A stretch of DNA of 54,270 nt. Origin: Oscillospiraceae bacterium (GTDB lineage: Bacteria > Bacillota > Clostridia > Oscillospirales > CAG-272). Below the pieces are notes generated by a model. That model did no database searches, had not been told where the DNA came from, and was given only the letters and a program-made list of their open reading frames with translations. The translations under genes were made by a program, and so were the position numbers. Positions 10,543-47,032 of the stretch are shown one piece after another. Numbering within the stretch: position 1 is the first letter of the stretch; every line of letters starts with the position of its first letter. The stretch covers positions 1-54,270 of the forward strand of contig SVQM01000002.1 of NCBI GenBank assembly GCA_015065335.1, given 5' to 3'.

Positions 10543-10735
10543 TTGGAATTCCTCCGTGAATTGCTGCAATGCAGCATAGTTATATTTAGTTTACAATACC
10601 TGTGCGGAATTGTCAATGAGTTTTGTGAAATTTACCATTGCCATTCTGAGATTCAAATTTGTTATAACAGCCGAAAGTGCCACTGCACTGAGGTGTCACG
10701 GTCGTGGGATGTGCGTTATGTTAAGACCAAACTTA

Positions 10736-13415: not shown

Positions 13416-15614
13416 ATGAGAAAAATCCTATCACTGATAGTGGCGGCGGTAATGATCCTCGGAGCATTTGCGGCCTGCAGTACTCAGGACGAAAAGAGAT
13501 CCACAACATCATCCGGTGCAAAGAAATATCTTGCGGAGCGTCTCGGTGATGCGGCAGACGGTATCGTTCTCGGCACTGAAGCAGAGGCAGAAGTGTACGG
13601 CATCGATATGTCTGATTTCCGTGCCGAGGGTTATGTTATAAAAAACGTAGGCGGTGATACAGTTATCTTCGGTAAGACTGAGGACGGACTTGACCGTGGT
13701 GTACGTTACTATGTAAATCATCTTGCGGATGCGGAAAACGTAAATCATACCTCGGGTGAGGGCTATCGTGTAAAAAGTATAGAGATAGCGGGCCGAGATA
13801 TCTCCGAGTATTCAATATATCTCTTTGAGGGTGCGGACGAGTGTCACACCTTTGCCGCAAATGAGCTTCAGAAGTACATCGAGCTTGCTTGCGGTGTGCA
13901 TCTTGATATAGTGCGTACTCCTGTAGAGCATATGATCGCATACGAGCAGGTAATGCCCGAGGACGAGAGATTTGAAGTTCTCGGAGACGATGGTTTTACC
14001 ATTTCCGTAAAGGACAATGGTGATCTTTATATTTCCGGCGGACGCTGGAGAGGATGTATGTATGGTACATACGAATTTCTTGAAAAGTACATCGGATGGC
14101 GATTCATAGTGAATTATCAGGCGATGAAGGACACTATCACCGACGATGATTACTACCTCTACGAGGCAGAGCTCATTGAGCTTCCCGCAGGGCTTGAGGA
14201 TACACAGGTGCCCTCATTTGCATACCGTCAGGGAAGATACCAGGGATATGCTTACAGTAACATTGCAATAAAGCAGAAGGAGAACGATGTTATCCGAGGT
14301 TCTGCTGCTTACAATGGTTATGGTTATGGACGGGGTGCAAACCACGGACTTCTCGGTGGCCCCATCAAGCATGGGTACATTGATCTCAGCATGGTAGATC
14401 AGTTAGTTATCAGTGGAGTCAAACAGCCCTGCTTTACGGATGATGTCATTATTGATACAGCAGAGCAATATTATATCGATCAGATCGAGGCGAAGCTTGA
14501 CAAGGGGCAGCAGATCGGCCGAGAGATCGTTGAGGTGGACATTGCACAGAACGATACTCCCGCCTTCTGCACCTGCGATACTTGTATGGAGTATGTGATG
14601 CTTGACGGTTCCGATACGGGCCCCATGCTCTACTTTGCCAATACTCTTGCAGAGAGACTTGGTGAGAGATATCCCGGTATTTATGTGAACATACTCGTTT
14701 ATATGGGTACCACTAAGCCTCCAAAGGTGACAAAGCCTCTTGAGAATGTAAGCTGTTCCTACTGCTTCTACTGTGATACAAATAAAAATTATTGCTCAAA
14801 TCACAGCCTTAACGGTGATGACTGTACTGTTTCCGAGTCTGCGGGACTTCCCATTAACAACGCACTTTACGCAGCGGAATTTGAAGCCTGGTGCGAGATC
14901 GCAAACCGAATGACTGTGTGGATATACCCCGGCAACTGGTACTATAACCAGATCCCCACTACCGGACTTGACACTCTCCTTGATGATTTCAGATACTTCA
15001 AAGAATATAAAATTCACGGAGTATATCCCTGTATGATCTCTCCCTCCTCTTGGGATACACAGGACTACCTCATTACGTATCTTCTCTCCGAGCTTGCGTG
15101 GAATGCGGATATGACCGACGAGGAATATGCGGCACTCATCGAGGAGTATATGACCATCTTCTTCGGAGAGGGTACGCCATATCTTCTGGAATATCTCGAC
15201 TGGCTTGAGACTACGGAGAAGGATACCTGCTTTACTACACAGGGACACAGCTATCCTCAGGAGAGACAGGACTTCATCAAGGTGAAGAATGACTATGGTT
15301 ACTGTATCGAACTGTTTGAGAATGCTAAGGCTCTCGCAGGCTCTGCGCTGCAGGAAAAGGGAATCGAGCTGTTCGAGCTCCCCATGCGCTTTGCAGGACT
15401 TGTGGCAAGCTATGAGGACCATTATGTGAACGGTAATGCCGAAGAAAAGGCACTCTATATCGAGAGATATGAGGAGTTCAAGGCTCTTGCCATTCCGAAC
15501 AATTTCGCACTTCACGGACGTGTGCTTGCCGAGGAGGAGTATGACGTATCACTTCACCCCGGAACGGGACACCACCCCGCCAACGGTACCAAGGAAGAAT
15601 GGTGGACGAAGTAA
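13416..15614 (+). CDS. DUF4838-like putative glycoside hydrolase, lipoprotein paralogue
   Basis: 732 aa with an AAAGGAG RBS. Signal peptide with lipobox AFAAC. GCMYGTYEFLEKYIGWRF and CTCDTC motifs parallel those of the two cytoplasmic paralogues. Confidence 0.6.
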   Translation: MRKILSLIVAAVMILGAFAACSTQDEKRSTTSSGAKKYLAERLGDAADGIVLGTEAEAEVYGIDMSDFRAEGYVIKNVGGDTVIFGKTEDGLDRGVRYYVNHLADAENVNHTSGEGYRVKSIEIAGRDISEYSIYLFEGADECHTFAANELQKYIELACGVHLDIVRTPVEHMIAYEQVMPEDERFEVLGDDGFTISVKDNGDLYISGGRWRGCMYGTYEFLEKYIGWRFIVNYQAMKDTITDDDYYLYEAELIELPAGLEDTQVPSFAYRQGRYQGYAYSNIAIKQKENDVIRGSAAYNGYGYGRGANHGLLGGPIKHGYIDLSMVDQLVISGVKQPCFTDDVIIDTAEQYYIDQIEAKLDKGQQIGREIVEVDIAQNDTPAFCTCDTCMEYVMLDGSDTGPMLYFANTLAERLGERYPGIYVNILVYMGTTKPPKVTKPLENVSCSYCFYCDTNKNYCSNHSLNGDDCTVSESAGLPINNALYAAEFEAWCEIANRMTVWIYPGNWYYNQIPTTGLDTLLDDFRYFKEYKIHGVYPCMISPSSWDTQDYLITYLLSELAWNADMTDEEYAALIEEYMTIFFGEGTPYLLEYLDWLETTEKDTCFTTQGHSYPQERQDFIKVKNDYGYCIELFENAKALAGSALQEKGIELFELPMRFAGLVASYEDHYVNGNAEEKALYIERYEEFKALAIPNNFALHGRVLAEEEYDVSLHPGTGHHPANGTKEEWWTK

Positions 15615-15675: not shown

Positions 15676-16056
15676 ATCAGTAATTTGTTACAGGCGAAAG
15701 AGCCATTGCTCTGAGCCGCCACGTTCGACGGTGCAGATCATCTTTGGTATTACTCCACCGAAACCTGCCTGTCCGTGCTACGGACTGCCGAAGTTTGCCC
15801 GTCGGGGCTACCGATATGTGTGTATGGATTTCAGTATTACAGGCGAAAGAGCCATTGCTCTGAGCCGTCACGTTCGACGGTGCAGATCATCTTTGGTATT
15901 ACTCCACCGAAGTATGCCCGTCGGGGCGTCCCGACCAGATGTGTATGGATTTCAGTATTACAGGCGAAAGAGCCATTGCTCTGAGCCGTCATGTTCGACA
16001 GTGCAGATCATCTTTGGTATTACTCCACCGAAGCATGCCTGTCGGGGCGTCCCGAC
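15676..16056. repeat. Three tandem copies of a composite structured intergenic repeat
   Basis: Copies start near 15676, 15831 and 15952. Conserved ~75-nt core: ttacaggcgaaagagccattgctctgagccgYcaYgttcgacRgtgcagatcatctttggtattactccaccgaa. Each core is followed by variable GC hairpins (gtccg-tgcta-cggac, gtcggg-gcgt-cccgac). Confidence 0.85.
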
Positions 16057-17801
16057 TACCACTGTAGTGGGTATGTTGAGAAATCGGGTACCTCGGAGAA
16101 ATCGATCCTGTGGAATTCTCTGTTTTCCTTTACGTCATATTCACGCATGAGAATGAAGTGTTCACGGTTGTTTTCCACGATAGCACGCTCGATCATCAGC
16201 TTGTCTTCTTCATTTTCAAAACGTTCCTTTGCGGATTTGAGTACGAAATTGTAATAGTTGTGGAGAGAGATCCTTGTACGACGAACATTGGTGTATGCAA
16301 ATTTGTTTCCTGTACCCCATGTCTCCGCTTCAGCTCTGTCAAAGAGCTCCGATGCTTTATCATAGAATGCAAAGCATCCTGCAAGATGATCCTTGTACCC
16401 CTTCATGGAGATGAGGTTTGCGGAGTTGTCGAAATACATATTCATGTGACTGTCCTCGGAGCAGTCGTGGATCATGTCAACGTACTTCAGGATGTACTTG
16501 CCACCCTCTCCGTAATATGCTTCACAGAATTCCTGCATATGGAGGCGGTACTCCGCTTCACCCATGTAAGGATTCCACTGGAGCTTTGCAAGAAGATATG
16601 CACGAAGCTCGCCGAGCTCACCGTTGAGATCACTGGAATTACCCTGAGAGAATACACCGACAACATTGTTGTCCGCATAGAGCCTCATGTTCGCACGAAG
16701 TGCCATGAGATTCGGAAAAATAGTGGACATATTGGTGAAATTGGTAGTGTAGTCCCAGATGTACAGCCTTTTGCATATCTTGCTCCATTTGCGGAGATTT
16801 TCGGGGAATGATCCGAATGCGGGATCTACCTCATGACATACATTTTCTATGGGGTGTCTAAAGCAGCTTTCCACATTACAAAGTCTTACGATCATGCCAT
16901 CATGAGGCTTTGTCTTCTCCGGCGGCTTTCTCGTATACTGATAAGCAAGAGTGTCAAGCACTACGTCGGGAAATTCATCCTTGATATCTTCCTTGATACG
17001 GTTGATGAAACGGATGAGAGTGCCGATGTGACTGTCTTCTTCCTCAAATACCGCACGGCACTTTTCGCAGGAGCATTCACCGTTGTTACCGTCCACCTGT
17101 GAGATGGAGATGATCTTCTTGTCAGGCTCCGCACGGAGCTTCTCACGGACATTCTTGAGGGTAGTCTGATAAATATCCTCATCCATAAGACAAGGCATAT
17201 CCCAGATGTTACCCGTCTCCGCAAGCTCCGGGATGGTGTGACAGAATCCACCGTTGTAGTGTATGGCACCGCCGATCTTATCAGTGATGGGGTGGCCCAT
17301 ACCACCGTTGTTTTTTAGCTTTGCACAGATCATCTCATCGTTCATGAGAGAGTACCAGTACACATTTCGGTATTCAAATACCGGTATCTCTGTGAGATCG
17401 ATGGATGAATCAATATAAAGAGTATTTTCAACTGTGGGAACTCTCTCACAATCCTTTGTGAAAAAGCGACATCCGCAGTATTTCTCAAGGAAGGTGTACA
17501 CTCCGTAAAGTGCACCTCGAACGGCAGAACCGAGGATCAGAATGCGTTTTTCAGACACCCTTATTGTGTAACCGTCATCGCCAAGCTCCTTGTTTTCCTT
17601 GCATCCGATACGGTCACAAAAACCTACAACGATCTCATGCTCTGCAGCTTCGGTATCATCTGTTACGACGGGAAATTCTGCTCCCGTGATCATACCGAGA
17701 TATTTTGCAAGCTCAAGAGCGGCGGTCTCTTCCGACTCGCTGTGATCTTGTTTGTATACAATAACGTATTTTGTGTCTTTTTTATTCGATAAATAAAGCA
17801 C
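16056..17801 (-). CDS. DUF4838-like putative glycoside hydrolase (cytoplasmic paralogue B)
   Basis: 581 aa with a GTG start and GGAGG 8 nt upstream. Collinear and highly similar to the 8794-10542 product (same MLYL..K.TKYVIVY start, same CSCEKC motif, same C-terminal block). Confidence 0.6.
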   Translation of the reverse strand: MLYLSNKKDTKYVIVYKQDHSESEETAALELAKYLGMITGAEFPVVTDDTEAAEHEIVVGFCDRIGCKENKELGDDGYTIRVSEKRILILGSAVRGALYGVYTFLEKYCGCRFFTKDCERVPTVENTLYIDSSIDLTEIPVFEYRNVYWYSLMNDEMICAKLKNNGGMGHPITDKIGGAIHYNGGFCHTIPELAETGNIWDMPCLMDEDIYQTTLKNVREKLRAEPDKKIISISQVDGNNGECSCEKCRAVFEEEDSHIGTLIRFINRIKEDIKDEFPDVVLDTLAYQYTRKPPEKTKPHDGMIVRLCNVESCFRHPIENVCHEVDPAFGSFPENLRKWSKICKRLYIWDYTTNFTNMSTIFPNLMALRANMRLYADNNVVGVFSQGNSSDLNGELGELRAYLLAKLQWNPYMGEAEYRLHMQEFCEAYYGEGGKYILKYVDMIHDCSEDSHMNMYFDNSANLISMKGYKDHLAGCFAFYDKASELFDRAEAETWGTGNKFAYTNVRRTRISLHNYYNFVLKSAKERFENEEDKLMIERAIVENNREHFILMREYDVKENREFHRIDFSEVPDFSTYPLQW

Positions 17802-18456: not shown

Positions 18457-20136
18457 ATGAAAAAGACAACCAAAAGACTTGCTCTTGCTATGGTAGTTCT
18501 TACTCTGCTCCAGGTAATGTTTGCGATCCCTTCATTCGCAAAGGCAGCTGACGGCGCAGCAGATGGCGTAGTAGAGGCAAGAGAAGCAGTAGTTCAGATC
18601 TATCTGACCTACACCGACGAAAAAGATGTTGAGTGGTACCTCAAGGCTGAGACCGGCTTCTTCATCAACTCCAATTACATCCTCACCTGTGATCATGGTG
18701 TAAACCTCACCGGTGCAGAGGTTGCTGACCTTGCAGAGCTTTACGGAGATCTGTACGAGGATGAGAGTGCAGCAGAGTACTTCCTCAAGAACTACAAGAA
18801 CAGACTCGGTTACAAGATCATGCTTGACAGAGACGTTCATGTATATGCTACTCCCACAGAGGCAAAGAGTGCGGCGTATGATTTCGCAGTACTTAAGGTA
18901 AACACCTCTCTTAACGGTATCGTTCCCCTTGCACTCGGTAATGATGATATGGTTGATGTTGACTCCGATATCACCTGTCTCGGATTCCCCTCTGTTACAA
19001 CTAACTGGACAGTAGGTAACGAGTTTAAGGCAAGCGATGTAACTCTTACAGATGGTAAGATCGGTAAGTACGAGACCATCGACGGTACTGACTACTTCAT
19101 GCATTCCGCTCTTATCGGTGAGGGAAGCTCCGGTGGTCCTACTCTTCTTGACGATGCTACTGTTGTAGGTATGGTAGGTGCTGTTGCTGTTGCTGACGGC
19201 CGTTATGCTTACTCCCTCCTCGTTGACGAGATGAAGGGCGTTCTTGATAAGTTCGGCATCGAGTACATCAAGAGAGACGGTGGAGTAGTTACTCCCGGTG
19301 ATGACGTTTGTGATCACGAGTGGGGTTCTGCTGTAATGAACAACTGCGTTCCCACTTACACCTGTTCCAAGTGTAATGAGACCAAGACTGATGCGGCTCA
19401 GCACACTTATGGTGAGTGGACCGTTATCAAGGAAGCTACTGCAGAGGCTGCAGGTGAGAAGGCTCAGATGTGTACCGTTTGCGGCGACAAGAAGACTGAG
19501 ATCATTCCCGCTACCGGTGTAACCACTACTGCTAACGCAGATAAGAAGGATGATGATAAGGGCGGTCTCGATATGATGACCATTATCCTCATCGCTGCAG
19601 GCGCAGTTGTACTTATCGTAATCGTAATTATCATCGTAGTTCTCGCAGGCGGCAAGAAGAAGGCTGCTCCCGCACCTGCTCCCGCTCAGAGACCTATGGC
19701 TCCTCCCGCACCTATGGCTCCTCAGCCTATGGCAGCTCCTATGGCTCCCCGTCCCATGGCTCCTCCTATGAATGAGGGTGCAGGTGAGACTACCGTTCTC
19801 AACGACGGTGCAGGTGAGACTACCGTTCTCGGCGGCGGTGCTGCTTGCGGTTCCCTTATCAGAACCAAGACCGGTGAGCGTATCTCAATCGTTGCTCCCG
19901 AGTTCGTGATCGGTAAGGAGAAGAGACGTGTTAACTACTGCATCTCCGATAATAACTCTATCAGCCGTGCACACGCTAAGATCATCGTAAGAGGTGGTTC
20001 TTGCTACGTTGTTGATATGAACTCTACTAACTTCACTTTCGTTAACGGAACTAAGCTTGCAAGCGGTCAGGAGCAGCTCCTGAACGACGGCGACAAGATC
20101 AAGCTCTCCGACGAGGAATTCGAGTTCAAGGCGTAA
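18457..20136 (+). CDS. Trypsin-like serine protease - TM - Pro-rich/ETTVL linker - FHA domain protein
   Basis: Start moved to ATG 18457 (RBS AAGGAG; MKKTTKRLALAMVVL signal peptide). S1 triad context: TCDHGV, DFAVLKV, GEGSSGGP. Cys-rich module, TM helix IILIAAGAVVLIVIVIIIVVLAG, PMAP repeats, two GAGETTVL repeats. C-terminal FHA signature: SRAH...NSTNFTFVNG. Confidence 0.8.
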   Translation: MKKTTKRLALAMVVLTLLQVMFAIPSFAKAADGAADGVVEAREAVVQIYLTYTDEKDVEWYLKAETGFFINSNYILTCDHGVNLTGAEVADLAELYGDLYEDESAAEYFLKNYKNRLGYKIMLDRDVHVYATPTEAKSAAYDFAVLKVNTSLNGIVPLALGNDDMVDVDSDITCLGFPSVTTNWTVGNEFKASDVTLTDGKIGKYETIDGTDYFMHSALIGEGSSGGPTLLDDATVVGMVGAVAVADGRYAYSLLVDEMKGVLDKFGIEYIKRDGGVVTPGDDVCDHEWGSAVMNNCVPTYTCSKCNETKTDAAQHTYGEWTVIKEATAEAAGEKAQMCTVCGDKKTEIIPATGVTTTANADKKDDDKGGLDMMTIILIAAGAVVLIVIVIIIVVLAGGKKKAAPAPAPAQRPMAPPAPMAPQPMAAPMAPRPMAPPMNEGAGETTVLNDGAGETTVLGGGAACGSLIRTKTGERISIVAPEFVIGKEKRRVNYCISDNNSISRAHAKIIVRGGSCYVVDMNSTNFTFVNGTKLASGQEQLLNDGDKIKLSDEEFEFKA

Positions 20137-20182: not shown

Positions 20183-20950
20183 ATGAACTTCTTAAAAGCA
20201 GCACACACGGATATTGGAATAAAGAAAAAAACAAATCAGGATTCTGTGTTGATACAAGAAGCTTCAACAGACTACGGCCAGGTAATGCTGGCTGTAGTCT
20301 GTGACGGAATGGGCGGCCTTGCCAAAGGTGAGGTCGCCAGTTCCACTGTTATCAACGCAGTGTCAGAATGGTACAAAACTGAGTTTGCGGACATTCTTTA
20401 TGAGGGTATGGATCCGAATTCTCTGCGCATCAGCCTTGAGAATTTCATCTACCGCATGAACGAGAAGATCCAGAACTACAGTAAGGCAAACCGCTGTTCA
20501 ATGGGTACGACATTTGTTGCGTTGTTTGTTGTAGGTGATAAGTACTACGTTATGAATGTCGGTGATTCCAGAGTCTATCGTATCCGAGATTCCTTTGAGC
20601 AGATAACAAAGGATCAGACATATGTTCAGCGTGAGATGGATATGGGACGTATGACTCCCGAACAGGCAAAGACAGATCCTCAGAGAAACGTTCTTCTCCA
20701 GTGTATCGGTGCCAGCAATCATATTGCTCCCGATTTCTATACCGGAGATGTTATGCCCAACGAGTGCTTCCTTCTGTGCTCTGACGGATTTAGACACCTC
20801 ATTACTCCCGAGGAATTCTATGAGTACCTGAATCCTTACGTAGCGACCGATGAGGCAAAAATGAAGCAGGCGCTTGAGTATTTTGTGGATCTCAATAAGT
20901 ATCGTCACGAGGACGATAATATTTCAGCGGCTTTGATCAGGACATATTAA
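20183..20950 (+). CDS. stp: PP2C-family Ser/Thr protein phosphatase
   Basis: ATG at 20183 with an AGGTGA RBS. Motifs TNQDS, VCDGMGG, GDSRVY and CSDG, with a terminal DDNISA. Confidence 0.9.
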   Translation: MNFLKAAHTDIGIKKKTNQDSVLIQEASTDYGQVMLAVVCDGMGGLAKGEVASSTVINAVSEWYKTEFADILYEGMDPNSLRISLENFIYRMNEKIQNYSKANRCSMGTTFVALFVVGDKYYVMNVGDSRVYRIRDSFEQITKDQTYVQREMDMGRMTPEQAKTDPQRNVLLQCIGASNHIAPDFYTGDVMPNECFLLCSDGFRHLITPEEFYEYLNPYVATDEAKMKQALEYFVDLNKYRHEDDNISAALIRTY

Positions 20951-21072
20951 ACTGTCATTGCCGAGCTTTCAAACGTGATTGTCACGAGAGTGAAAAAAGA
21001 GCTTTTGAGGGCTCGGCAGTGACTGTTTCCGTAATTTTACGGTCATTAAATTGTGAGCAGGAGAAATTGCAG

Positions 21073-22824
21073 ATGCTTGAAATAGGATCAGTAATCGATG
21101 GAAAATATAAAATACTGAATAAGATCGGCCAGGGTGGTATGAGCGTCGTTTATCTGGCGATGAACGAGAGAGCCAATAAACAGTGGGCGATCAAAGAGGT
21201 CAGAAAAGACGGAGTTACTAACTTTGAGGTCGTAAAACAGGGACTTGTTGCAGAGGTCGATATGCTGAAAAAGCTGAATCACCCGCATCTTCCCAGTATT
21301 ATCGACGTAATCGACGGTGACGATTCCTTCCTTATTGTAATGGACTATATCGAAGGTGTATCCCTTAATAAGAAATTGAGGGAGCTCGGTGCGATCCCGC
21401 AGGAGAATGTTATCGAATGGGGTAAGCAGCTCTGTGATGTACTTGGATATCTCCATTCAAGAACTGCTCCAATCATCTATCGTGATATGAAGCCGGCAAA
21501 CGTAATGCTGAGACCTGACGGAGATGTAATGCTCATCGACTTCGGAACTGCACGTGAGTTTAAGTCGAACAGTGTTGCAGATACTACCTGTCTCGGTACT
21601 CAGGGATATGCAGCCCCCGAGCAGTTCGGAGGTCAGGGACAGACTGACGCCAGAACAGATATCTACTGTCTCGGTGCAACTCTTTATCATCTTGTTACCG
21701 GTCATAATCCTTGTGAGTATCCTTATGAGATGTATCCCATAAGACAGTGGAATCCTGCTCTTTCATCCGGACTTGAGCAGATCATTCAGAAATGTACTCA
21801 GAAAAATCCCAACGACAGATATCAGTCCTGTGCCGAGCTTATGTACGCTCTCGATCACTATCAGGATTTCGATATTGAGAGTCGCAAGAAGATGAATGTC
21901 AAGTGGCGTTCCTTCGTCGCAGCGAGTCTTGCATCAATTGTGATGTTTGGTGGTGCCGTGGGATTTAAGATCAAGGCAAACAGCGATTCTGAGAGAGCAT
22001 TTAACAATAATATCACTCATACCGAAACAATAGAGGATTTCAGAAACCTGGTGGTTGCGGCATCGGCTTTCCCCGAAAGAGTCGAACCTTATAAAAAGGC
22101 GGTCGAGATCATTCTGAGAGATTCTCAGTTTACTACAACCGAGAGAAATGCACTTCTCACCTCTCTTCTCGATCCTTCCGATACAGAGAACATTGATACT
22201 CTAAAGGAAGAAAACAATGAGTATTACAAGTTCTGCTATGATCTCGGTATTGCGTATTTCTTCCAGTATGAGAATTATACTACCGGTATAGCGAACTGTC
22301 AGAAATGGCTCGATGAGGCGGCAAAAAGTCCTGAGTATGAAAGTACCATCAATGATACTGACTACGGAATGAGTGCCGAGGATATAAAGAACGCAAAGAT
22401 GCTCAGCAAGCTTTCCGGTGCTGTAGCGCATCAGATGTCTAAAAACAACAATGTGTCTATAGACAGTAGTACAAATATTGTAAACGTAGGTGAAGAGGGT
22501 CCCACCGGAGATACTGAATACAATGAAAAACAGTATTGGGATGATCTTACCTCAATTCTGAAGCTCGAATTCTTCAATGAGTCAAATTCCATGACAAAGA
22601 GACGAGTATATCAGTGGATCCACGCAGCACTCCAGCACAATCACGTGAAAATGGCAGGCTACGGTGTAACATATAGTCAGATGAGAGAAGTAATTGATAA
22701 GGCTAAGAGTGATCTGAACAGTATTCTTATCGGTATTGCAGATACATCATCAGCTTCTTATCAGGAAGTAAAGAGCCTTCTCGATAACTATGAGACCATA
22801 GCTGATATGTGGGCAGATCAGTAA
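21073..22824 (+). CDS. Hanks-type Ser/Thr protein kinase with TM helix and extracellular non-PASTA domain
   Basis: ATG at 21073 with an AGGAGA RBS. G-loop GQGGMSVVY, AIKEV lysine, catalytic loop YRDMKPAN, DFGTA, AAPE. TM helix FVAASLASIVMFGGAVGF, then a ~290-aa unassigned ectodomain. Confidence 0.9.
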   Translation: MLEIGSVIDGKYKILNKIGQGGMSVVYLAMNERANKQWAIKEVRKDGVTNFEVVKQGLVAEVDMLKKLNHPHLPSIIDVIDGDDSFLIVMDYIEGVSLNKKLRELGAIPQENVIEWGKQLCDVLGYLHSRTAPIIYRDMKPANVMLRPDGDVMLIDFGTAREFKSNSVADTTCLGTQGYAAPEQFGGQGQTDARTDIYCLGATLYHLVTGHNPCEYPYEMYPIRQWNPALSSGLEQIIQKCTQKNPNDRYQSCAELMYALDHYQDFDIESRKKMNVKWRSFVAASLASIVMFGGAVGFKIKANSDSERAFNNNITHTETIEDFRNLVVAASAFPERVEPYKKAVEIILRDSQFTTTERNALLTSLLDPSDTENIDTLKEENNEYYKFCYDLGIAYFFQYENYTTGIANCQKWLDEAAKSPEYESTINDTDYGMSAEDIKNAKMLSKLSGAVAHQMSKNNNVSIDSSTNIVNVGEEGPTGDTEYNEKQYWDDLTSILKLEFFNESNSMTKRRVYQWIHAALQHNHVKMAGYGVTYSQMREVIDKAKSDLNSILIGIADTSSASYQEVKSLLDNYETIADMWADQ

Positions 22825-22852: not shown

Positions 22853-23383
22853 ATGAATAGTTCAATGTTGATTTTCAAAAATGCCGCTGCGGCGGAGGCG
22901 GGCGGATTTGCAAGTACCGCATTCGTAATTTGCCTTGTTTTGGGATGCGTGTGCCTCGCACTTGCTGTGCTTTTCTTCTTCATTTTCGATATTCCGAGAG
23001 TGTACCTTGTCAGAACAGGTAAGGGTGCTCGTAAGACTATCAAAAAAATGGAGGAGATCAATGCTCAGACAGGCAGACTCCGCAGAGTAAACGAAGAATA
23101 TATGCTGTCAGAGGATGCTCCTTTGACAGGAGATATAGGACATACACCAAGCCACGATATCAGCAGCACGCCTCAGATGCAAGGCGGAGCAGAAGGAAAT
23201 GCTACTACAGTGCTGGGACAGCAGATCGAAACTACCGTGCTCAGTAATAATGAAACTACCGTGCTTAACGGCGGTGTTCAGAATAACGCTGTAAGCAGTG
23301 CGTATTCCTATCAGAGAAAAACATCCGGAAAATTTGATGTAGTAACAAATATCGTTATGACACATTCTGATGAGATTATTTGA
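22853..23383 (+). CDS. Small membrane protein with a cytoplasmic tail bearing three (A/E)TTVL repeats
   Basis: About 176 aa; the start could be GTG 22844/22850 or ATG 22853. One TM helix (FVICLVLGCVCLALAVLFFFIF), then NATTVL, IETTVL and NETTVL within 27 residues. Confidence 0.6.
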   Translation: MNSSMLIFKNAAAAEAGGFASTAFVICLVLGCVCLALAVLFFFIFDIPRVYLVRTGKGARKTIKKMEEINAQTGRLRRVNEEYMLSEDAPLTGDIGHTPSHDISSTPQMQGGAEGNATTVLGQQIETTVLSNNETTVLNGGVQNNAVSSAYSYQRKTSGKFDVVTNIVMTHSDEII

Positions 23384-23467: not shown

Positions 23468-23950
23468 GTGAAAATGATAAAAAAGTTTTCCTTATGTTAT
23501 AATATAACGGTCATTGGATATATATTATCGGCAATTGCCATATTGTTTGTTCCGATCTCGGATATTACGGATAACGGAAAAATAGGCGCCTTCAGCATCA
23601 TTGTGGCGATTGTGTTTTGGCTCGGACTTGTATGGGGGACCTTGAGTCTCATTATACTTACAAAGTTGAGACATAAGCTAAGAGCAAGAATGCCGAGCTT
23701 GATCGTAAAGATACCGAAAAAATTTCCCGGTATCATGAATTTCAGTATGAATATCAGACACCTGATATTATATGCTGTTATACTGATCGGAATCGTTATC
23801 ATCATACTTGATTTGATCTTGGGTTTTGCAAATCAGTATTTGATGTTTCCGGTTATCGCAGGTACATATTCTGCATTTATAATGCATTGTATGATAGATG
23901 GAAAGAATTATCAAATCTATAAAATTTTGAAGAAAGGTGAGAAAAAATGA
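23468..23950 (+). CDS. Polytopic membrane protein (hypothetical)
   Basis: 160 aa with about four hydrophobic helices. Its stop overlaps the start of the giant gene (ATGA), suggesting translational coupling. Confidence 0.55.
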   Translation: MKMIKKFSLCYNITVIGYILSAIAILFVPISDITDNGKIGAFSIIVAIVFWLGLVWGTLSLIILTKLRHKLRARMPSLIVKIPKKFPGIMNFSMNIRHLILYAVILIGIVIIILDLILGFANQYLMFPVIAGTYSAFIMHCMIDGKNYQIYKILKKGEKK

Positions 23951-26900
23951 TTGCAAAAAGCAAGAACACTAACTTCAATCGACTGTTGAGTGGATTTTTA
24001 TCACTTCTGATGGTAATGTCCGTTCTTCCTCTCGGTATCTTCTCCGTTGTTGCCGATACAGCAGCAGAGTATACCTTTGCGATAGTCGACGCAAGCGATG
24101 CGGCTGTTGCCGGCGCAACCGTAACTCTTTATGATGATAACAGAGAGGTTGCAAAAGGCGAAACCGATGGAACCGGCAAGGCGGTAATAAAGGCCGATGC
24201 CGGCGATAATGTGACCTATAAGGTGGAGAAGGACGGATACTCATCTGCTATGGGAGTTACTACTGCGGGTGCAGTTGTTACCGTAAAGCTGATCAGACGT
24301 CCTACTACAACAGTTGTAGGTTATGTTAAGGATTCTACCGGTGCTGCCATTACCGGAGCACAGGTCAAAATTGCCGATAAGGGTATTGCCATAACTGACA
24401 CTGTGGGTAAGTTCCTTATCGGAGGTGTATATACCGACGCATCATATGTAATAAACGTTACTTGCGACGGATATAAGGACGTGGCTGTTACAGCTAATCT
24501 CAAGTCCGAGAATATGATCACCATGTTCACAAAGGATGACGGAGATTTTGCGTTTGCGGCAGATAAGGTTACCGTAAAGTACGGTGACAGTGTATCTAAC
24601 ACCCTTATCAACAGCGCACCTTCAGCAAATGTTACCTATGAGTCTTCTGACGAGAGTATTGCTACAGTTGATAACAACGGTAATGTTACGATCAAAAATG
24701 TTACCGGTGCTGACGGTGTAGTTATTACCGCACGTCGTGCAGAATCACTGAACTACCTCTATGCTGAGGATTCCTACACCCTTGTAGTTGTTAAGGGTGA
24801 TCAGGCAACTCTGCAGTGGACAAAATCTGTTCCCGAGGATTATGCTCTCAACTTCAAGAGCGGCGCATATACCAATACTGTTATTGGCGGATCCGGTGAT
24901 GGTGATGTTACATACAAGTCATCTGATACGAATGTCGCTACAGTAAATAATGACGGTGTTGTTACACTTAATATGCCGGGTACCGTTACCATTATGGCTA
25001 CTAAGTCCGGCGGTGAGCTTTATAATGATAAGTCTGCTACATATAGCCTTGTTATTGATAAGGTTGAGCAGGCGCCTCTTGAGTTTGCCATTGCAAGCCC
25101 CGACTCTATCGAATATGGTCAGCAGTTTGCAAATGCTGCTTCCGGCGGTACAGTTTTAAGCGACATCATCTATTCTACAGATGATGCGACTGTTGCTGAG
25201 ATCGACACCGAGAGCAATGTTGTCGGAGCAATAAAGACCAACAGTATCGGTGCTGTAGTTGTAACTGCAACTATGCCCGGAAATGAGTATTATAAGGATG
25301 TTTCTGCATCATATACTCTGTATATCGTTGCTACAAAGCAGAAGGGCTTCCAGTTCCAGAAGGGAACCGAGGGCCTTGAGGTTGCTTGCGGAGAGACATT
25401 TACCAATGCCGCTTTCGGTAATGGTGAGACAAATGTACCCGTAGTATACAAGAGCGAAGATGATACTATCGCAACCGTTGATGAGAACGGTGTTGTTACT
25501 GCGCACAAAACAGGTATCGTTACTATCTCTGCTACTGCTCCCGCAGGCGGAAATTACTCCGAGACTACTATCAGCTATGAGCTCAATATCTATAAGGGCT
25601 ATCAGGAGCTGACTTTTGAGAATGGTAATATTGATATTCCCGCTATCTTCTACGGCGAGACATATCAGAACAAGGCGATCGCCAAGACCGGAGTTACCTA
25701 TAAGACTTCAAATAAGAATATCGCAACTATTGATGAGAACGGTGTTGTTACACCTCTCAAGTCAGGCGTCATTATAATCACTGCTACTGCTGAAGATACT
25801 GCTGATTACTATGGTGCTACCGCTACATACAGACTCACTATCAATAAGGCTGAGCCTAAGATCGAGTTTGAGAACGGTGCGGATGTAACCGTACAGTTCA
25901 ACGATAACGATAATGTATATCAGAACGAGGCTTTCTGTCAGTCAATGATAGATGACGGAACCGTGACCGATATCGCTTATTCTGTTTCCAATACAGATAT
26001 CGTGGCAGATCTTGATCCTGCTACAGGTAAGTTTACAATTACCGGTACAGGTACAGCTACCATTTCTGTAACCTTTGCAGAAAATGAAAGATATGCAGCG
26101 AAGACAGCTTCTTACACAATTACTGTTATTCCCGACGATCAGAAGATCGTATTCCCCGAGGATAAGTATACTCTTCTTTCCGGTACCAATTTTGCGACTG
26201 TACCTGTTGCAACTGAGGACGGAGATCTCTTCGGTACCGGTGCTATCACCTATGCCGTAAAGAGCGATGATAGCGGTGTTATCAAGTCATTTGATGTAAA
26301 CACCGGTGCTATAGAGTTTACTAATAAGGTTGGAACTGTAGTTATCGTTGCAACTAAGGCAGAGGACAGAAATTACAATGCCGCAACTGCCGAATATACT
26401 CTTACAGTAGAGTACTGGAAGCCCGAGAGAGAATTCTTTGCTCCTGTAGGTGAGAAGAACTATGAGGCAAATGAGTGGTATATCGGTAACGTAACCATTC
26501 AGGCAGAGGATGGATATTCTCTCAGTTTCGACAACCACGTTGATAATGCAGAGTGGCTTCCCGCTCTTGACGATGTAGTGGTCGATGACAGTAAGGAGAC
26601 CACAGTTTCCTTCTACCTCAGAGATAATAATACAGGTGCTATCACGGCACAGTATACAAAGCTCTTTAAGAAGGACTGCGTTGCCCCTTCTGCTGAGATC
26701 AATGCAAAAGAGAAGAATACATGGGAGAAGTTCCTCTCCATCTTTACCGGACTTTTCTGGGATGCAGATGAGGATGTGTTCACCGTAACTTCCTCCGATG
26801 CTACCTCCGGTGTTGCAAAGATCGAGTACTATATCGACTACGATAAGACTACTACCGCAACCTATGATGAGCTGGCTGCACTTGCAGATTCCGAATGGAT

Positions 26901-29900
26901 CGCTTATACCGATGAGGGTATTGCGGCTGATGAGAGTACCGTATTTGCAGTATACGCAAGAGTTACCGATCATGCAGGTAACTGTGTATATGTTTCAACT
27001 AACGGTATTATCCATGATCCTGCAGCTCCCGAAGTAGAGCTTACGGTTACAGGCGATACTGCAAACGGCGTGTATTATAAGGATGTAACAATTGACTTTG
27101 ATGTTACCGACGCAGAGCCTTCTTCCGGTATTACTAAGGTAACATATAATGTTGTTGTTACAGATCTTGACGGCGTTTCTACTGTTATTGTAGATAATGA
27201 AGAGTATTTTGCTGATAACAGTGAGGATCCCGAATACGCTGATCTTGTAAGAAACGTATCAAAATCCGGTACCGATATCCTTTATTATAAGGCACTTGAT
27301 TATAATAACTATACAATGAATGTTACCGTAACTGCAACTGACAGAGCCGGTAACGTAACAGTAGAAAGCACAGAGTTCTTCATTCGTGCAGACAGACCCG
27401 AGCTCGAAGAGGTCATCATCGAAGAGGGCTACGGTAAGCGTACAATTCAGTTTGCGATCAAGGATTTCCATGATCTTGAGCTGTTTGCTGAGACTGTAGA
27501 GTTTACTGTTGTTGCAACCGATATCGAAGGCAATGTGCTTGAGAATAATGACGGTAGCCTTTATACAATCGAGCCCTGGATATATGAGGGTGAAGGAAGA
27601 CATACTACAACCGCATATTTCACAGGCGATGCAATCTATAATCTGCACCTTGAATATTCCTACGATTACGATGAGGAAAAGGGCCAGGAGCCTTTTGATA
27701 CAGAGTTTACAGTAGATACCACATCTCCTACCGGTAATCTGTCAATCGATAAGACAGATAAGCTTTGGACAGACATTTTTGAAACACTTACATTCGGGCT
27801 GTGGACTAATGACAGCTTTGAGGTAGTCGGAAGTGCTTACGATAGCATTACCGGCGTAAACAGCGTTGAGTTCTATGAGATCGACGGTACACTGGTAGAT
27901 AGCAAGCTTGGTACTACCAAGGAAGAGATCGTAGCGGCACTTGACCTTGTTGAGTGGACAGCTATTGACAGTGTAGAGGACTTTACAGAGTTCGCTGTTA
28001 AGACTATCGTTCCCGACAGCCGTACTACTGTATTTGTTAAGATCACTGACGTTGCAGGAAACTACAGATACATCAGCACCGATGGAATCATCGTAGAGGA
28101 TGATGAGGCTGTGATCGAATTTACTTCCGATGATCCCGAGGCTGACGGATACTATACCTCTGATTTCAATGTAAATATTTCCGTTACCGATCCTGAGATC
28201 TATTCCGGTATCGCAAAGATCGAGTATTGGGTAGTAAAGGACAATGATACGGAAAATCCGACTCAGGAAGGTGTTCTCTATACATTCGGTGATGTAAATC
28301 CCGCATATGATAAGCTCACAAATACCTTCACCGATAATGTTGTTATTGAAACTGATAAGAACAACAGTGATAATGTCTGCCTCTATGTAGAAGTAACAGA
28401 TAATGCAGGCAATAAGACTGTTAGAAACAGCGAACAGTTCAAGATCGATAACACTGCACCTGTTGTAAATATTGAGTTCACAGGTGAAAACAAGAATAAC
28501 GGTGCACTTGACGGTAACTTTACATCCAGAGAAGTGAAGATCACCGTAACCGAGAGAACAAGCGGCTTTGATGCAGATGCAGTTCTTGCAGTACTCGGCA
28601 TTACCGCAGTTGATGCAAAGGGTAATGCAGTAGAAAATGCATACACTATTGGTGAGTGGACCACTGTTCCCGGTGAGAATATCAATGATGATACACATAC
28701 CGTAGTGATCACTTTTGCGAAGGATGCAAGATACACCTTCGAGATCGCAAGCTTTACCGATAAGGCGGGTAATAAAGCAGAGTTCGTGATCGGCGAGGCT
28801 GTAAGTGAGACTTACGGACCCGACGAATTTGTAGTAGATACAACTGCTCCTATCGCTACCGTCACCGTAAATGGTAACGATATCGTAGGAAATCTTACCT
28901 TTGATAAGGAGACCGTGAGCGTAACAGTAACACCCGATGATGCGACCTCCGGTGTTCAGTACGTTCAGTGGCTCAAGGTCAACTCCACCATTCCTATGGA
29001 GCAGGCTGAGCTTGAGGCGGCAGAGTGGTCTAATGAAGCAATCACCGAGATCGCTCCAAACGAGATCGCAACAATCTACGCAAAGATCGTTGACAATGCA
29101 GGAAATTACTGCTACGTTGGAACAAACGGACTCGTAATTGAGAATAATGCGGCAGAGCTTACCGTTACTCCTGCAGAGCCTAATGCAAACGGTTATTACA
29201 GCAACGATGTAGCTGTGAATGTTACAGTTACAGATCCCGATATCTATTCCGGTATCGCAAAGATCGAGTACTGGGTGATCTGCGATGGCATTGAGACTCA
29301 GAAAGATACTCTTGATTTGGATATCGTTGATGATCCCGTATACGATGACCTCAAGAATGTATTTGAGGGAAGTATCGATGTTATTGCTGAAAAGAATAAC
29401 AGCGATAACGTAGTTCTCTATGTGCGTGCAACCGATAACGCAGGCAACATTATCGAGAAGAGCGTAGAGCTCAAGATCGATGTAACAGCACCTGTAGTTG
29501 ATGTTAAGTATATCAACGAGACTAAGAATGACGGTGCAGTAGACGGTAACTTTACATCCAGAGGAGCAAAGATCACCGTAACTGAGAGAACAAGCGGCTT
29601 TGATGCAGATGCAGTTCTCGCAGCACTCGGAATCACAGCATTTGATGCAAAGGGTAATGCAGTAGAGAATGCATACACTATCGGTGAGTGGACTACCACA
29701 AAGGGAGCAACTCCCGATGAGGATACACATACCGTAGTGATCACCTTTGTTAAGGATGCAAGATACACCTTCGAGATCGCAAGCTTTAACGATCTTGCAG
29801 GAAACGCATCTGTAGCATATGAGGCAGACAGCTTTGTAGTTGATACAACTGTTCCTACAGGATATATTACTGTTGGTGATAAGAGCGACTGGGCACTTAT

Positions 29901-34557: not shown

Positions 34558-34643
34558 AAGAAGCAGCCTCTGCGCTGGCAAACCACAAGGAGGATGTAAT
34601 CCTGTGGTTTGCCGCCGGAGGCTCTTCTTGCATTTATTGTTTG
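34558..34643 (+). terminator. Two-tier stem-loop terminator after the giant gene
   Basis: Outer stem aagaagcagcctc / gaggctcttctt. Inner stem ggcaaaccacaagg / cctgtggtttgcc. Followed by gcatttattgttt. Confidence 0.55.
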
Positions 34644-34651
34644 AGGTAACG

Positions 34652-36726: not shown

Positions 36727-37119
36727 ATGAAATGTCCTAATTGCAGAAGAGATTTACCGAACAATTACCTTAGATGCCCATATTGTAATGAGCTTACGTC
36801 TCCGGGTTATGCGAACACAAGGTATAATTCCGAAACGGAGCCGGTTTACAATAATATGAGAAATAACCGTGTATATTATCAGGATCACGGTAATTATTCT
36901 CGTGATCAAAGAAATACCCAATATAATTATAATTCTGATTATTACGGGAACCAGTATTACGGTTATTCCGATAATAATTATTATTATGAAGAACCGTATT
37001 ATGAAAACGACAAGAAGAACAATGATATAAATCATATTCTTATATCTATGGCAGTTTTCATAATAGGTATGCAGATAATAAATCTGCTGGCAATATTCGT
37101 GCTGATGCTAAGACTTTAA
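36727..37119 (+). CDS. Zinc-ribbon protein with N/Y-rich low-complexity region and C-terminal TM anchor
   Basis: 130 aa. CPNC...CPYC ribbon, then a ~75-aa Asn/Tyr-rich tract (NYNSDYYGNQYYGYSDNNYYYEEPYYEN), then the helix ILISMAVFIIGMQIINLLAIFVLML. Confidence 0.6.
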   Translation: MKCPNCRRDLPNNYLRCPYCNELTSPGYANTRYNSETEPVYNNMRNNRVYYQDHGNYSRDQRNTQYNYNSDYYGNQYYGYSDNNYYYEEPYYENDKKNNDINHILISMAVFIIGMQIINLLAIFVLMLRL

Positions 37120-46654: not shown

Positions 46655-46687
46655 TAATAAGACAGAAGAGAAAAGGAGAAAAAGAAA

Positions 46688-47002: not shown

Positions 47003-47032
47003 TTTGAATAGATAGCTTACCCTTGAATTTCA

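Follow-up and report, generated by a model that had tools for sequence, protein, structure and literature searches.

The duplicated GAGETTVL motif of a protease-FHA membrane protein is most likely a phosphorylation and docking site of a switch controlling a gut clostridial type VII secretion locus

The window analyzed here, a stretch of 54,270 nucleotides of DNA from an Oscillospiraceae bacterium, carries a perfect direct repeat of 24 nt, ggtgcaggtgagactaccgttctc, within a gene that also encodes an FHA domain, which raises the question of what the duplicated peptide does there. A sequence-only reading had held that the repeat encodes two GAGETTVL units in a cytoplasmic linker. All features located below lie on the forward strand. 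The two copies were confirmed by sequence reading at 19777-19800 and 19807-19830; a repeat search returned a longer unit of 30 nt (19771-19800 and 19801-19830, 93% identical), and TRF reported a period of 30 with 2.2 copies over positions 19777-19841. Even with up to three mismatches allowed, the 24-mer had two copies only, against an expectation of 0 from 100 shuffles. Read in the frame of the ORF at 18457-20136, the repeat gives NEGAGETTVL NDGAGETTVL (residues 439-458), with the two GAGETTVL units spaced 10 residues apart: an FHA-distal unit 1 (19777-19800; G-A-G-E-T445-T-V-L448) and an FHA-proximal unit 2 (19807-19830; G-A-G-E-T455-T-V-L458).

Whether the DNA or the peptide is the conserved feature was decided by comparing 63 motif pairs, one of them from the window and the other 62 from orthologous loci. 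In 62 of the 63, and in 61 of those from orthologous loci, the two copies stand 10 residues apart, and their codons diverge. The two 24-nt units of a pair shared 14 to 24 of their 24 bases, mostly 18 to 22, and complete identity was restricted to the window and one other locus (L076). Perfect DNA identity of the two units is thus lineage-specific, so that the feature standing above chance is the conserved peptide, and the differences at synonymous sites between the two units in 61/63 pairs argue for selection on the protein. A role of the DNA itself, for instance in programmed slippage or as a binding site, was rejected because only 2 of the 63 pairs are identical in DNA.

The gene concerned (18457-20136) encodes a protein of 559 aa, here called TrypFHA, for which an identical 559-aa database protein exists (P0001). 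Its signal-peptide-like N-terminus is followed by a trypsin-like (S1) protease domain predicted to be extracytoplasmic (18652-19173, residues 66-239; Pfam Trypsin_2, 63.6 bits vs a cut-off of 27.6), in which H80, D142 and S225, the last within G-S-S-G-G-P, are invariant in an alignment of 38 TrypFHA sequences of 32-59% identity (alignment A1) and may be read as the catalytic triad. A single hydrophobic segment at about residues 369-405 contains the TM segment assigned from the sequence and a hydropathy scan (19576-19650, residues about 374-398), after which comes KKK; this arrangement, together with the signal-peptide-like N-terminus, places the following linker in the cytoplasm, as had been claimed. 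The linker (19651-19848, residues 399-464) is Pro/Met/Ala-rich before it reaches the two motifs, and AlphaFold2 predicts it to be disordered, with pLDDT values of 51-61 throughout and around 51-52 over the motifs; in this single-chain model, computed with no phosphate and no second chain, the motif is undocked. The first FHA strand of the model begins at residue 465, so the end of motif 2 is 6 residues from the fold, and T455 and T445 are 10 and 20 residues upstream of it, respectively. The earlier estimate of about 20 residues between repeat and FHA domain is roughly adequate for the Pfam boundary (25 residues from L458 to residue 484), the predicted fold beginning closer to the repeat.

The gene order TrypFHA, PP2C, STK1 and sm179 is fixed across related loci, and a Hanks kinase and a PP2C phosphatase accompany the motif protein, a single locus having TrypFHA alone. 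The PP2C-type phosphatase, a candidate eraser (20183-20950; Pfam PP2C_2, 47.6 bits, above cut-off), is a conserved neighbor with 81 ORF matches in 80 loci plus the window. Also a conserved neighbor is STK1, the candidate writer (21019-22824; Pfam Pkinase, 170.7 bits), a Ser/Thr kinase of the Hanks type that has both a TM segment and an extracellular domain. The fourth gene, sm179 (22853-23383), encodes a single-TM protein of 176 aa made up of a TM helix, a juxtamembrane helix, a disordered tail and a C-terminus, of which the juxtamembrane helix and the C-terminus are conserved; it is without an FHA domain, and searches of Pfam, NCBIfam and homologues returned no curated family match. Its tail carries three further copies of the motif (23201-23266; A-T118-T-V-L, E-T127-T-V-L and E-T135-T-V-L), overlooked by the sequence-only reading, in a region of pLDDT below 50. 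Residues T128, T135, T136, V137 and L138 are invariant in the alignment of sm179 (alignment A3), and the number of copies varies across species from 0 to 7, with none in 9 of 71 homologues.

Conservation of the motif in orthologues had been set beforehand as a test of its significance. Among 119 TrypFHA homologues with a recognizable IG[KR]E landmark in the FHA domain, the pattern ET.[VLIM]L occurred upstream of that domain at least once in all 119 and at least twice in 112, and the motif was kept down to about 30% identity. Alignment A1 shows no variation at G441, T445, L448, G453, E454, T455 and L458, in contrast to the surrounding linker. The last motif stands at a fixed distance of 29-34 residues (mode 31) from the glycine of the FHA IGK, the distance from the TM segment to the motif ranges from 30 to 85 residues, and the motif and FHA domain are found as a cassette on other N-terminal modules as well. 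A repeat that arose lately by slippage within a low-complexity linker, and that is devoid of function, would be in line with the identity of the two units in the window's DNA, with the copy number range of 1 to 4 among homologues and with the Pro/Met/Ala-rich tandem arrays nearby, such as the period-27 array reported by TRF at 19711-19770. However, this reading is already contradicted by the 10-residue-spaced pairs with divergent codons and by key residues that are invariant at 32-59% overall identity, and we consider it scarcely credible.

The motif is also largely specific to the two protein families described above. Across the ORFs of the 80 related loci and the window (827,303 aa), ET[TSGA][VLI]L was found 240 times, 160 in TrypFHA, 71 in sm179 and 9 elsewhere, while the reversed control pattern was found 8 times and permuted ones 14-18 times. 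Within the window's 34 proteins TTVL occurred 5 times, compared with 0.38 on average and never more than 4 in 1000 shuffles. The motif is absent from the window's EssC, both small FHA proteins, PP2C, the second kinase STK2, the WXG100 proteins and YukD. The giant surface protein has a single ETGIL, in line with a shuffle expectation of about 2, and the sole further match is a segment of the STK1 activation loop, described below. A search of the published literature for the motif peptides, alone or together with FHA, gave no relevant match.

The residue preferences point to the kind of site involved. Position 0, the first Thr of the motif, was Thr in 179 and Ser in 4 instances in TrypFHA, and Thr in 183 and Ser in 3 in sm179 (about 98% Thr over all instances). 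On the other hand, the second Thr is variable (T/S/G/A in TrypFHA, with E/Q/D too in sm179), T and S interchanging freely at this +1 position. Position +2 is V, L or I, position +3 is Leu in about 99% (182/183 in TrypFHA), and the Gly residues beside the motif are conserved. As FHA domains read pThr and not pSer, and select on the +3 residue, the resulting consensus, [E/D]-T-x-[V/L]-L, fits an FHA ligand. Of the 'TT' acceptor proposed earlier, the first Thr, constrained together with Leu at +3, is thus retained and the second is not; in the likely register, this first Thr corresponds to T22 of GarA (pT-S-V-F), V/L taking position +2 and L position +3, instead of the literal 'ETT' alignment. 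A hydrophobic +2/+3 pattern is likewise present in the ligands of DgcB, GarA and OdhI (PMC6733907).

The T-[TS]-V-L core is strand-prone and could act without phosphorylation, and an alternative is that G-E-T-T-V-L docks by beta-strand addition onto the kinase, PP2C, the YukD-like protein or another part of the secretion system, its Thr being structural. The beta-branched and hydrophobic character of the motif and the conservation of its flanking Gly residues suit such docking, as does the binding of the unphosphorylated DgcB tail to its own FHA cleft (PMC6733907). Nevertheless, a structural role of Thr hardly accounts for the near exclusion of Ser from position 0 when T and S interchange at +1, and the motif invariably occurs together with a kinase, a phosphatase and an FHA domain. 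Moreover, its consensus extends to a known autophosphorylation segment, the kinase activation loop: directly before the G-T of its P+1 loop, STK1 has the segment D-T-T-C-L (21580-21594), and D-T-x-x-L-G-T was found in 76 of the 77 readable loops of STK1-type kinases (DTTCL in 49; the exception is DTICI), so that loop and motif have a [D/E]-T-x-hydrophobic-L consensus in common. This likeness might be coincidental, since Hanks kinases often have a hydrophobic residue before G-T. Taking these points together, we judge phosphorylation-independent docking unlikely and favor a phospho-acceptor.

The same loop bears on another reading, in which the motif is phosphorylated without being an FHA ligand: phosphorylation would act directly on protease activity, stability or localization, and the FHA domain would dock on the phosphorylated activation loop of the kinase. 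The loop has the same pT-x-x-L pattern, mycobacterial FHA proteins are recruited to autophosphorylated kinases, and the GarA-PknB structure 6i2p is among the Foldseek matches of the FHA domain. We hold this reading to be very improbable given that Leu at +3 and a Thr-only position 0 are constraints of the type that a reader imposes, and are observed in both motif-bearing families. Docking of the FHA domain on the loop and its reading of the motif are compatible and not mutually exclusive.

In TrypFHA, residues 465-558 (19849-20130) form an 11-strand beta-sandwich fold of pLDDT above 90 in the AlphaFold2 model, within which Pfam FHA (PF00498) matches residues 484-550 (56.0 bits vs a cut-off of 20.7). 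Foldseek retrieved EmbR, DgcB, FhaA, OdhI and GarA (probability 1.00, rmsd 1.0-1.9 A; target TM-scores of 0.8-0.9 for isolated FHA domains), and all of these closest solved relatives bind pThr peptides; of the solved structures, DgcB was closest in sequence (E 7e-10, 33% identity), and the FHA domain of Rv1747 (6cah) was among the PDB matches. Residues G486, S503, R504, H506 and N525 are conserved in the TrypFHA family; in the 249 alignable sequences the Asn is invariant, the pocket reads S-R-x-H in 226, and the canonical Arg position, occupied by K487 in the window, is always basic (K in 201, R in 48). We know of no characterized pThr-binding FHA domain with Lys at this position. Judged from its model and conserved pocket residues, the domain may be competent for pThr reading, the canonical Arg being Lys in about 80% of the family.

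These structural relatives raise the possibility of a strict cis switch of the GarA/OdhI type, in which the phosphorylated motif would fold onto its own FHA domain for autoinhibition, with no intermolecular network. The candidate acceptor Thr residues do lie in disordered sequence ahead of an FHA domain that has GarA, OdhI and DgcB among its relatives, and the 20 residues between T445 and the fold are comparable to the distance from pT14 to V32 in DgcB. Yet the proximal copy, the best conserved one, is only about 10 residues from strand 1, probably too short a tether for the apical pocket, so binding of this copy in cis is sterically unlikely, and up to 7 copies of the motif in the FHA-less sm179 would make sense only for reading in trans. 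TrypFHA is, furthermore, outside the GarA/OdhI family: the OdhI model NF041660 gave no match at E <= 0.001, and membership was rejected on this ground and on the signal-peptide/protease/TM architecture. An exclusive cis switch is consequently improbable. The GarA/OdhI-like architecture that had been proposed stands as regards the Thr motif in a disordered segment before the FHA domain and not as regards kinship, and the cis or trans docking proposed with it finds support in a residue pattern that fits an FHA ligand, cis binding being doubtful for the proximal copy.

The surroundings of the operon provide further candidate partners. By its EssC, WXG100 and YukD-like proteins, the window qualifies as a type VII secretion (T7SS) locus of the Firmicutes type: the EssC-type ATPase with its FtsK_SpoIIIE domain (39464-44452) matches NCBIfam T7_EssCb_Firm with 1060.6 bits vs a cut-off of 778.4, five WXG100 ORFs (46358-48516) each exceed the cut-off of 27.3 bits, and the YukD protein scores 28.3 bits vs 27. 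EssC was reached in only 7 of 80 loci, as the giant gene fills the downstream side of the 10-kb flanks. The N-terminal FHA domain of EssC reads I-G-E, with Glu at the canonical Arg position, and a phospho-link to the secretion ATPase is therefore not obvious. Two TM-anchored FHA proteins, of 175 aa (38787-39314; Pfam FHA, 42 bits) and 194 aa (48513-49097; 58.6 bits), have the canonical G-R, S-x-x-H and N residues and are candidate readers, so that, with TrypFHA itself and EssC, the locus encodes several FHA proteins. It likewise encodes two kinases, the second being STK2 (34604-36541), with a TM segment, TPR repeats and DFN in place of DFG. The suggestion that both write the motif is plausible for STK1, the conserved neighbor with the same loop consensus, and weakened for STK2, since TPR kinases of its type are not constant neighbors and were found within the 10-kb flanks in a minority of loci.

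We thus favor the view, to which we assign a probability of about 0.6, that the GAGETTVL pair is a phospho-acceptor and docking motif of a kinase/phosphatase/FHA network at this T7SS locus. The co-transcribed STK1 would phosphorylate the first Thr of each unit (T445 and T455), the adjacent PP2C would remove the phosphate, and FHA domains would read the pT-x-[V/L]-L epitope. The proximal copy would most likely be bound in trans, by the FHA domain of a neighboring molecule or by the two small membrane-anchored FHA proteins, and the distal copy may be bound in cis or in trans. Together with the copies of sm179, those of TrypFHA could form a multivalent, phosphorylation-dependent docking network that gathers membrane components of this kinase-, phosphatase- and FHA-rich locus, the extracytoplasmic trypsin-like protease included. 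The sequence-only reading is in this way partly supported: its general idea largely stands, and its details have been refined.

The analysis supplies concrete conserved candidate acceptor sites (T445 and T455 in TrypFHA; T118, T127 and T135 in sm179), names a likely writer and eraser, and adds a component not described before, a membrane protease with a cytoplasmic FHA domain. Gut bacteria that can be grown in culture carry the module, among them [Ruminococcus] torques ATCC 27756 and Faecalicatena orotica DSM 1287, which makes the idea directly testable. A more speculative extension, possible but in our view doubtful, is that [E/D]-T-x-[V/L]-L serves as a common phospho-code of a kinase-regulated T7SS class in gut Clostridia, one kinase writing the epitope on its own activation loop, on the protease-FHA protein (two copies) and on the single-TM scaffold (0-7 copies), and at least three membrane-anchored FHA readers condensing a secretion-competent cluster. 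On this extended reading, a trypsin-like protease outside the cytoplasm, a functional analogue of the mycosin MycP, would be coupled to secretion through multivalent pThr-FHA contacts.

Compared with known systems, TrypFHA resembles GarA and OdhI in its disordered segment N-terminal to the FHA domain with an E-T-T-x-hydrophobic acceptor motif, which in those proteins is phosphorylated by Hanks kinases and read as pThr by the FHA domain. GarA of Mycobacterium and OdhI of Corynebacterium are small soluble regulators of TCA-cycle and glutamate enzymes that are shut off in cis, with their motif about 30 residues from the fold, whereas TrypFHA, 559 aa long, is anchored in the membrane and bears an extracytoplasmic protease; its two motif copies lie 20 and 10 residues from the fold, and Lys replaces the canonical Arg. 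In the FHA-GGDEF protein DgcB of Bdellovibrio (PDB 6hc0/6hc1), the FHA domain binds its own disordered N-terminal tail, L-E-K-pT14-S-I-V, in which pT14 has hydrophobic residues at +2 and +3 and lies 18 residues before the fold, its authors being undecided between cis and trans binding (PMC6733907). Unlike TrypFHA, with its membrane anchor, two sites, co-encoded kinase and phosphatase and T7SS context, this diguanylate cyclase is soluble, its acceptor site is single and its kinase is an orphan.

For the FHA-proximal T455 the best analogue is human TIFA, in which pT9 is reportedly so near its own FHA domain that binding is intermolecular and phosphorylation leads to head-to-tail oligomerization. 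Condensation of TIFA is mentioned in PMC10865109. TIFA is a eukaryotic adaptor of innate immunity with no sequence relationship to TrypFHA past the FHA fold. Multivalent pThr-FHA contacts are also said to cause clustering of the M. tuberculosis ABC transporter Rv1747, like TrypFHA an FHA membrane protein with two acceptor Thr residues, in TrypFHA candidate ones, in a disordered linker. According to passages of PMC8339232, the residues concerned, T152 and T210, are phosphorylated by PknF. Rv1747 differs in having two FHA domains that flank the linker, an ABC exporter body and acceptor sites without a repeated consensus peptide.

Among secretion systems, the closest parallels come from passages of Garrett et al. 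2024 (PMC11217815). In the T6SS pathways described there (PpkA-PppA-Fha1, and TssL-Fha of Agrobacterium), phosphorylation of a membrane component brings in an FHA protein and switches secretion on. The locus here likewise combines a membrane Hanks kinase with a PP2C and an FHA protein, although the system and the phylum are different and the acceptor sites of those pathways are single, with no common repeated motif. The same passages propose control by threonine phosphorylation for the newly recognized subtypes T7SSd, T7SSe and T7SSj, and the parts that they describe (an EssC-type ATPase with FHA, WXG100 and YukD-like proteins, a membrane kinase, a PPM phosphatase and separate FHA proteins) match the window; by description, TsxI, a large Ig-like protein with a Sec signal and a C-terminal TM, corresponds to the product of 23947-34548, the single-TM proteins TsxH and TsxK with their short unstructured cytoplasmic stretch resemble sm179, and TsjD of T7SSj is a membrane kinase with TPR. 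Judged by these published descriptions, the accessory set of the three subtypes (kinase, PPM phosphatase, FHA protein, TsxI and TsxH/K) is present in the window. The passages on T7SSd/e/j name no acceptor site or motif, and a trypsin-like protease-FHA component is not mentioned in that paper, where 'trypsin' has 0 occurrences. The motif system is thus a variation on the already known pThr-FHA mechanism and, if the favored reading is true, a bacterial case of multivalent short-motif pThr-FHA assembly that would stand beside Rv1747 and TIFA.

The sequence-only reading had reported a 24-nt direct repeat encoding two GAGETTVL units upstream of the FHA domain of a 559-aa protein (ORF 18457-20136; signal peptide, trypsin-like protease, transmembrane (TM) segment, linker and FHA domain; here TrypFHA), and this was borne out by reading of the sequence, a repeat search, TRF and a mismatch search. 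ggtgcaggtgagactaccgttctc is present twice, at 19777-19800 and 19807-19830, within a 30-nt unit (19771-19800 and 19801-19830) whose copies share 93% identity; TRF gave a period of 30 with 2.2 copies, and allowing up to three mismatches only these two copies were found in the window, where zero were expected. In the frame of the ORF the units read NEGAGETTVL-NDGAGETTVL (residues 439-458), and they follow a Pro/Met/Ala-rich tandem array (19711-19770; period 27, 2.2 copies, P-M-A-P repeats) that makes up the linker from the TM segment to the motifs. At the DNA level, 63 motif pairs were compared, 62 from 80 related genomic loci plus the window's own. The paired 24-nt units had 14-24 of 24 bases alike, mostly 18-22, with identical pairs only in the window and in one other locus (L076), and where the amino acid was the same the codon was also the same at only 59% of positions. 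This divergence and low codon sharing show that the duplication is old and has been kept up as protein sequence; the perfect identity of the window's two DNA units arose by local accident or by recent gene conversion.

The matches listed included 120 homologues, all of them Trypsin_2 plus FHA proteins. The IG[KR]E landmark could be recognised in 119 homologues, and every one of them has one or more ET.[VLIM]L copies no further than 90 residues upstream of the FHA domain, with two copies in 103 and three in 9. An alignment of 38 sequences with 32-59% identity to the query revealed G441, T445, L448, G453, E454, T455 and L458 as the invariant linker columns; H80, D142 and S225, read as the catalytic triad of the protease, are also invariant. 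Loss of the motif from proteins that conserve the FHA domain, which the sequence-only reading had named as evidence against its proposal, was thus not what we found. Its "TT motifs" hold for the first Thr of each unit and not for the second (446 and 456), which is S, G or A in homologues. That the units are a neutral repeat, for which the perfect DNA identity might speak, is extremely improbable beside this conservation.

A residue-preference pattern permitting Ser or Thr at position 0 (the first Thr) gave 179 Thr and 4 Ser for the protease-FHA family, with T (115) or S (56) at +1, V/L/I at +2, Leu at +3 in 182 of 183 instances, and Glu at -1 in 159. Because FHA domains tell pThr from pSer and select on the +3 residue, an FHA ligand would be expected to show just this combination of a Thr-only position 0, free T/S at +1 and a hydrophobic +3 that is fixed. 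Given the Thr-only position 0 and the fixed +3, we regard phospho-acceptors that are not FHA ligands as quite improbable. The same hydrophobic +2/+3 rule has been described for DgcB, GarA and OdhI (PMC6733907). The position-0 Thr and the hydrophobic +2/+3 residues point to E-[pT]-x-[V/L]-L as the functional register, with a putative phosphosite at its Thr. This register, not the literal "ETT", corresponds to pT22-S-V-F of GarA.

A six-frame TT[VIL]L scan of the window returned five in-gene TTVL instances, two in TrypFHA and three (A-T-T-V-L, E-T-T-V-L and E-T-T-V-L; motifs at 23201-23266) in the gene at 22853-23383, which encodes a 176-aa single-TM protein; in 1000 shuffles of the window's 34 proteins TTVL occurred 0.38 times on average and at most 4 times. 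Comparison of this protein with curated families gave no match. In its own family, a TM helix is followed by a juxtamembrane helix that is conserved (TGKGARKTIKKMEEINAxTGRL), then by a disordered tail in which (E)-T-x-[V/L]-L occurs 0-7 times, and finally by a C-terminus that is likewise conserved (F.I.K....IHT.E.I). Position 0 is Thr in 183 instances and Ser in 3, +3 is Leu (178) or Met (8), and +1 is freer still (T, S, E, D, A, Q). When every ORF of 50 aa or more from the 80 loci and the window was scanned (827,303 aa), ET[TSGA][VLI]L occurred 240 times; the protease-FHA family accounted for 160 of these and the small TM family for 71, with 9 elsewhere. In the same set the reversed control pattern occurred 8 times and permuted ones 14-18 times. 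Set beside the near-exclusive Thr at position 0, a docking motif independent of phosphorylation appears unlikely.

In TrypFHA, Trypsin_2 (residues 66-239) and FHA (484-550) both exceed the Pfam cut-offs. The signal-peptide-like N-terminus and the single further hydrophobic segment (about residues 369-405), followed by KKK, predict that the protease lies outside the cell and that the Pro/Met/Ala-rich linker, both motifs and the FHA domain lie inside. Between protease and TM segment, residues about 286-345 (19312-19450) are Cys-rich (C-x...C-x5-C-x2-C ... C-x2-C); many homologues have PF07554 at this place instead, so the spacer is a module that lineages have swapped. The motif-FHA cassette is also attached to other N-terminal modules, as found in a search of 1.84 billion representatives with a motif-plus-FHA query (133 clusters at E <= 1e-30).

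For the TrypFHA tail, an AlphaFold2 model built from 73 aligned sequences gave pLDDT >90 for the FHA sandwich (residues 465-558), 51-61 in the linker and about 51-52 across the motifs themselves. With the FHA starting at 465, T455 and T445 stand 10 and 20 residues ahead of the first strand. Among homologues, 29-34 residues (mode 31, in 76 of 119) separate the Thr of the last motif from the IGK glycine, and 30-85 separate the TM segment from the first motif. The fixed spacing of the last motif holds the proximal copy about 10 residues from strand 1, probably too short a tether for its own apical FHA pocket; TIFA provides a precedent for trans FHA binding forced by a short tether. The distal copy, at 20 residues, matches the 18-residue spacing of DgcB, for which both cis and trans binding were allowed for (PMC6733907). 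A pure cis switch of the GarA kind, which the distal spacing would allow, is in our judgement unlikely, to about the same degree as phosphorylation-independent docking.

Foldseek and phmmer searches of the PDB placed the TrypFHA FHA domain with the pThr-binding domains of EmbR, Bdellovibrio DgcB, FhaA, OdhI, GarA and Rv1747; the DgcB structure, bound to its own phosphorylated N-terminal tail, shares 33% identity (E 7e-10). The canonical Gly-Arg is Gly-Lys in TrypFHA, its I-G-K lying opposite I-G-R of DgcB in the phmmer alignment. Among 249 alignable family members the Arg position is basic in all (K in 201, R in 48), the Asn never varies, and S-R-x-H occurs in 226, against 23 with G-R-x-H. R61, K72 and R76 converge on the phosphate in DgcB (PMC6733907). 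The pocket looks competent, with Lys at the Arg position a genuine caveat. The small TM-anchored FHA proteins at 38787-39314 and 48513-49097 are fully canonical (G-R, S-x-x-H, N). Unlike these, the FHA domain of the EssC-type ATPase (39464-44452; about residues 113-176) may not read pThr, because I-G-E replaces I-G-R, with Glu at the phosphate-binding Arg position.

Gene order is essentially invariant across loci: TrypFHA, a PP2C phosphatase (20183-20950), a Hanks-type kinase (STK1; 21019-22824) and the small TM protein, followed by a 160-aa TM protein and a giant Ig-like protein; in the window this row lies on one strand, with gaps of about 19-122 nt or overlaps. The STK1-type activation loop is D-T-x-x-L-G-T in all but one (DTICI) of 77 readable loops, DTTCL in 49 of them, and D-T-T-C-L-G-T in the window (21580-21594). 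As in the motif consensus, an acidic residue precedes a Thr that does not vary, +1 is variable, +2 is hydrophobic and +3 is Leu. Because the loop mirrors the motif and kinases autophosphorylate this loop, STK1 may, on circumstantial grounds, write the motif epitope; equally circumstantially, the active kinase could also be a docking site for FHA domains. In the second kinase (34604-36541), D-F-N stands in place of D-F-G and H-C-D in place of H-R-D, and TPR repeats follow the TM segment (compare TsjD); it lacks the D-T-x-x-L-G-T loop, and only a minority of loci showed it within their 10-kb flanks.

We favor, at a probability of roughly 0.6 for the whole, an explanation in which STK1 would phosphorylate the first Thr of every [E/D]-T-x-[V/L]-L unit in the protease-FHA protein and the small TM scaffold, PP2C would erase the mark, and FHA domains would read it, mainly in trans, so that membrane components of the secretion locus would come together in a multivalent assembly dependent on phosphorylation. 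What the analysis shows directly is the motif with its conservation, residue logic, disorder and synteny, together with the FHA fold and pocket; that the motif is phosphorylated, by which kinase, and that binding and assembly follow, is inferred.

The type VII secretion set of the window is complete, including EssC, which exceeds its NCBIfam cut-off, and a YukD-like gene (45970-46218) ahead of five tandem WXG100 paralogues (46358-48516), among which lies a 121-aa ORF (47086-47451); the window also encodes an additional FHA protein, the TPR kinase, a TPR protein and a LytTR regulator. Between TPR kinase and TPR protein, a 130-aa ORF (36727-37119) has a zinc-ribbon-like C-x2-C...C-x2-C at its N-terminus, then a low-complexity region very rich in Asn and Tyr, and a TM segment at its C-terminus. 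The WXG100 genes and the FHA gene are directly followed by a gene for a 358-aa protein (49113-50189) without a family match in Pfam or NCBIfam; its N-terminus is helical and its C-terminal half is Gly/Ala-rich and glycine-zipper-like, and it might be a T7SS substrate or membrane-active toxin. Three paralogous DUF4838/GH20b-like (GH67N-like) putative glycoside hydrolases directly upstream (8794-10569, 13416-15614 and 16056-17801) are apparently unrelated to the locus.

The part list matches the T7SSd/e/j subtypes of Garrett et al. 2024 (PMC11217815), with kinase TsxD, PPM phosphatase TsxF, FHA protein TsxJ, Ig-like TsxI and single-TM "unstructured" TsxH/K. The 3533-aa giant protein (23947-34548; a Sec signal, numerous Ig-like repeats that include long internal near-duplications, and a TM anchor at the C-terminus), a conserved neighbor downstream of the kinase module with 44 ORF hits across loci, resembles TsxI, and the small TM protein may correspond to TsxH/TsxK. 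Garrett et al. suggest phospho-regulation of these systems and mention no trypsin-like protease-FHA part, and their passages on the subtypes name no acceptor site (PMC11217815). A literature search with the motif strings found nothing relevant to the motif. The kind of mechanism, in which an FHA domain is paired with a pThr acceptor in its own chain or in a partner protein, beside a Hanks kinase and PP2C, is known from GarA/OdhI, DgcB, TIFA, Rv1747 and the T6SS threonine phosphorylation pathway; new with respect to these are the specific repeated consensus peptide, its sharing by two membrane protein families and a kinase activation loop, a trypsin-like protease outside the cell fused to an FHA domain in the cytoplasm, and the position within a T7SS locus of gut Clostridia.
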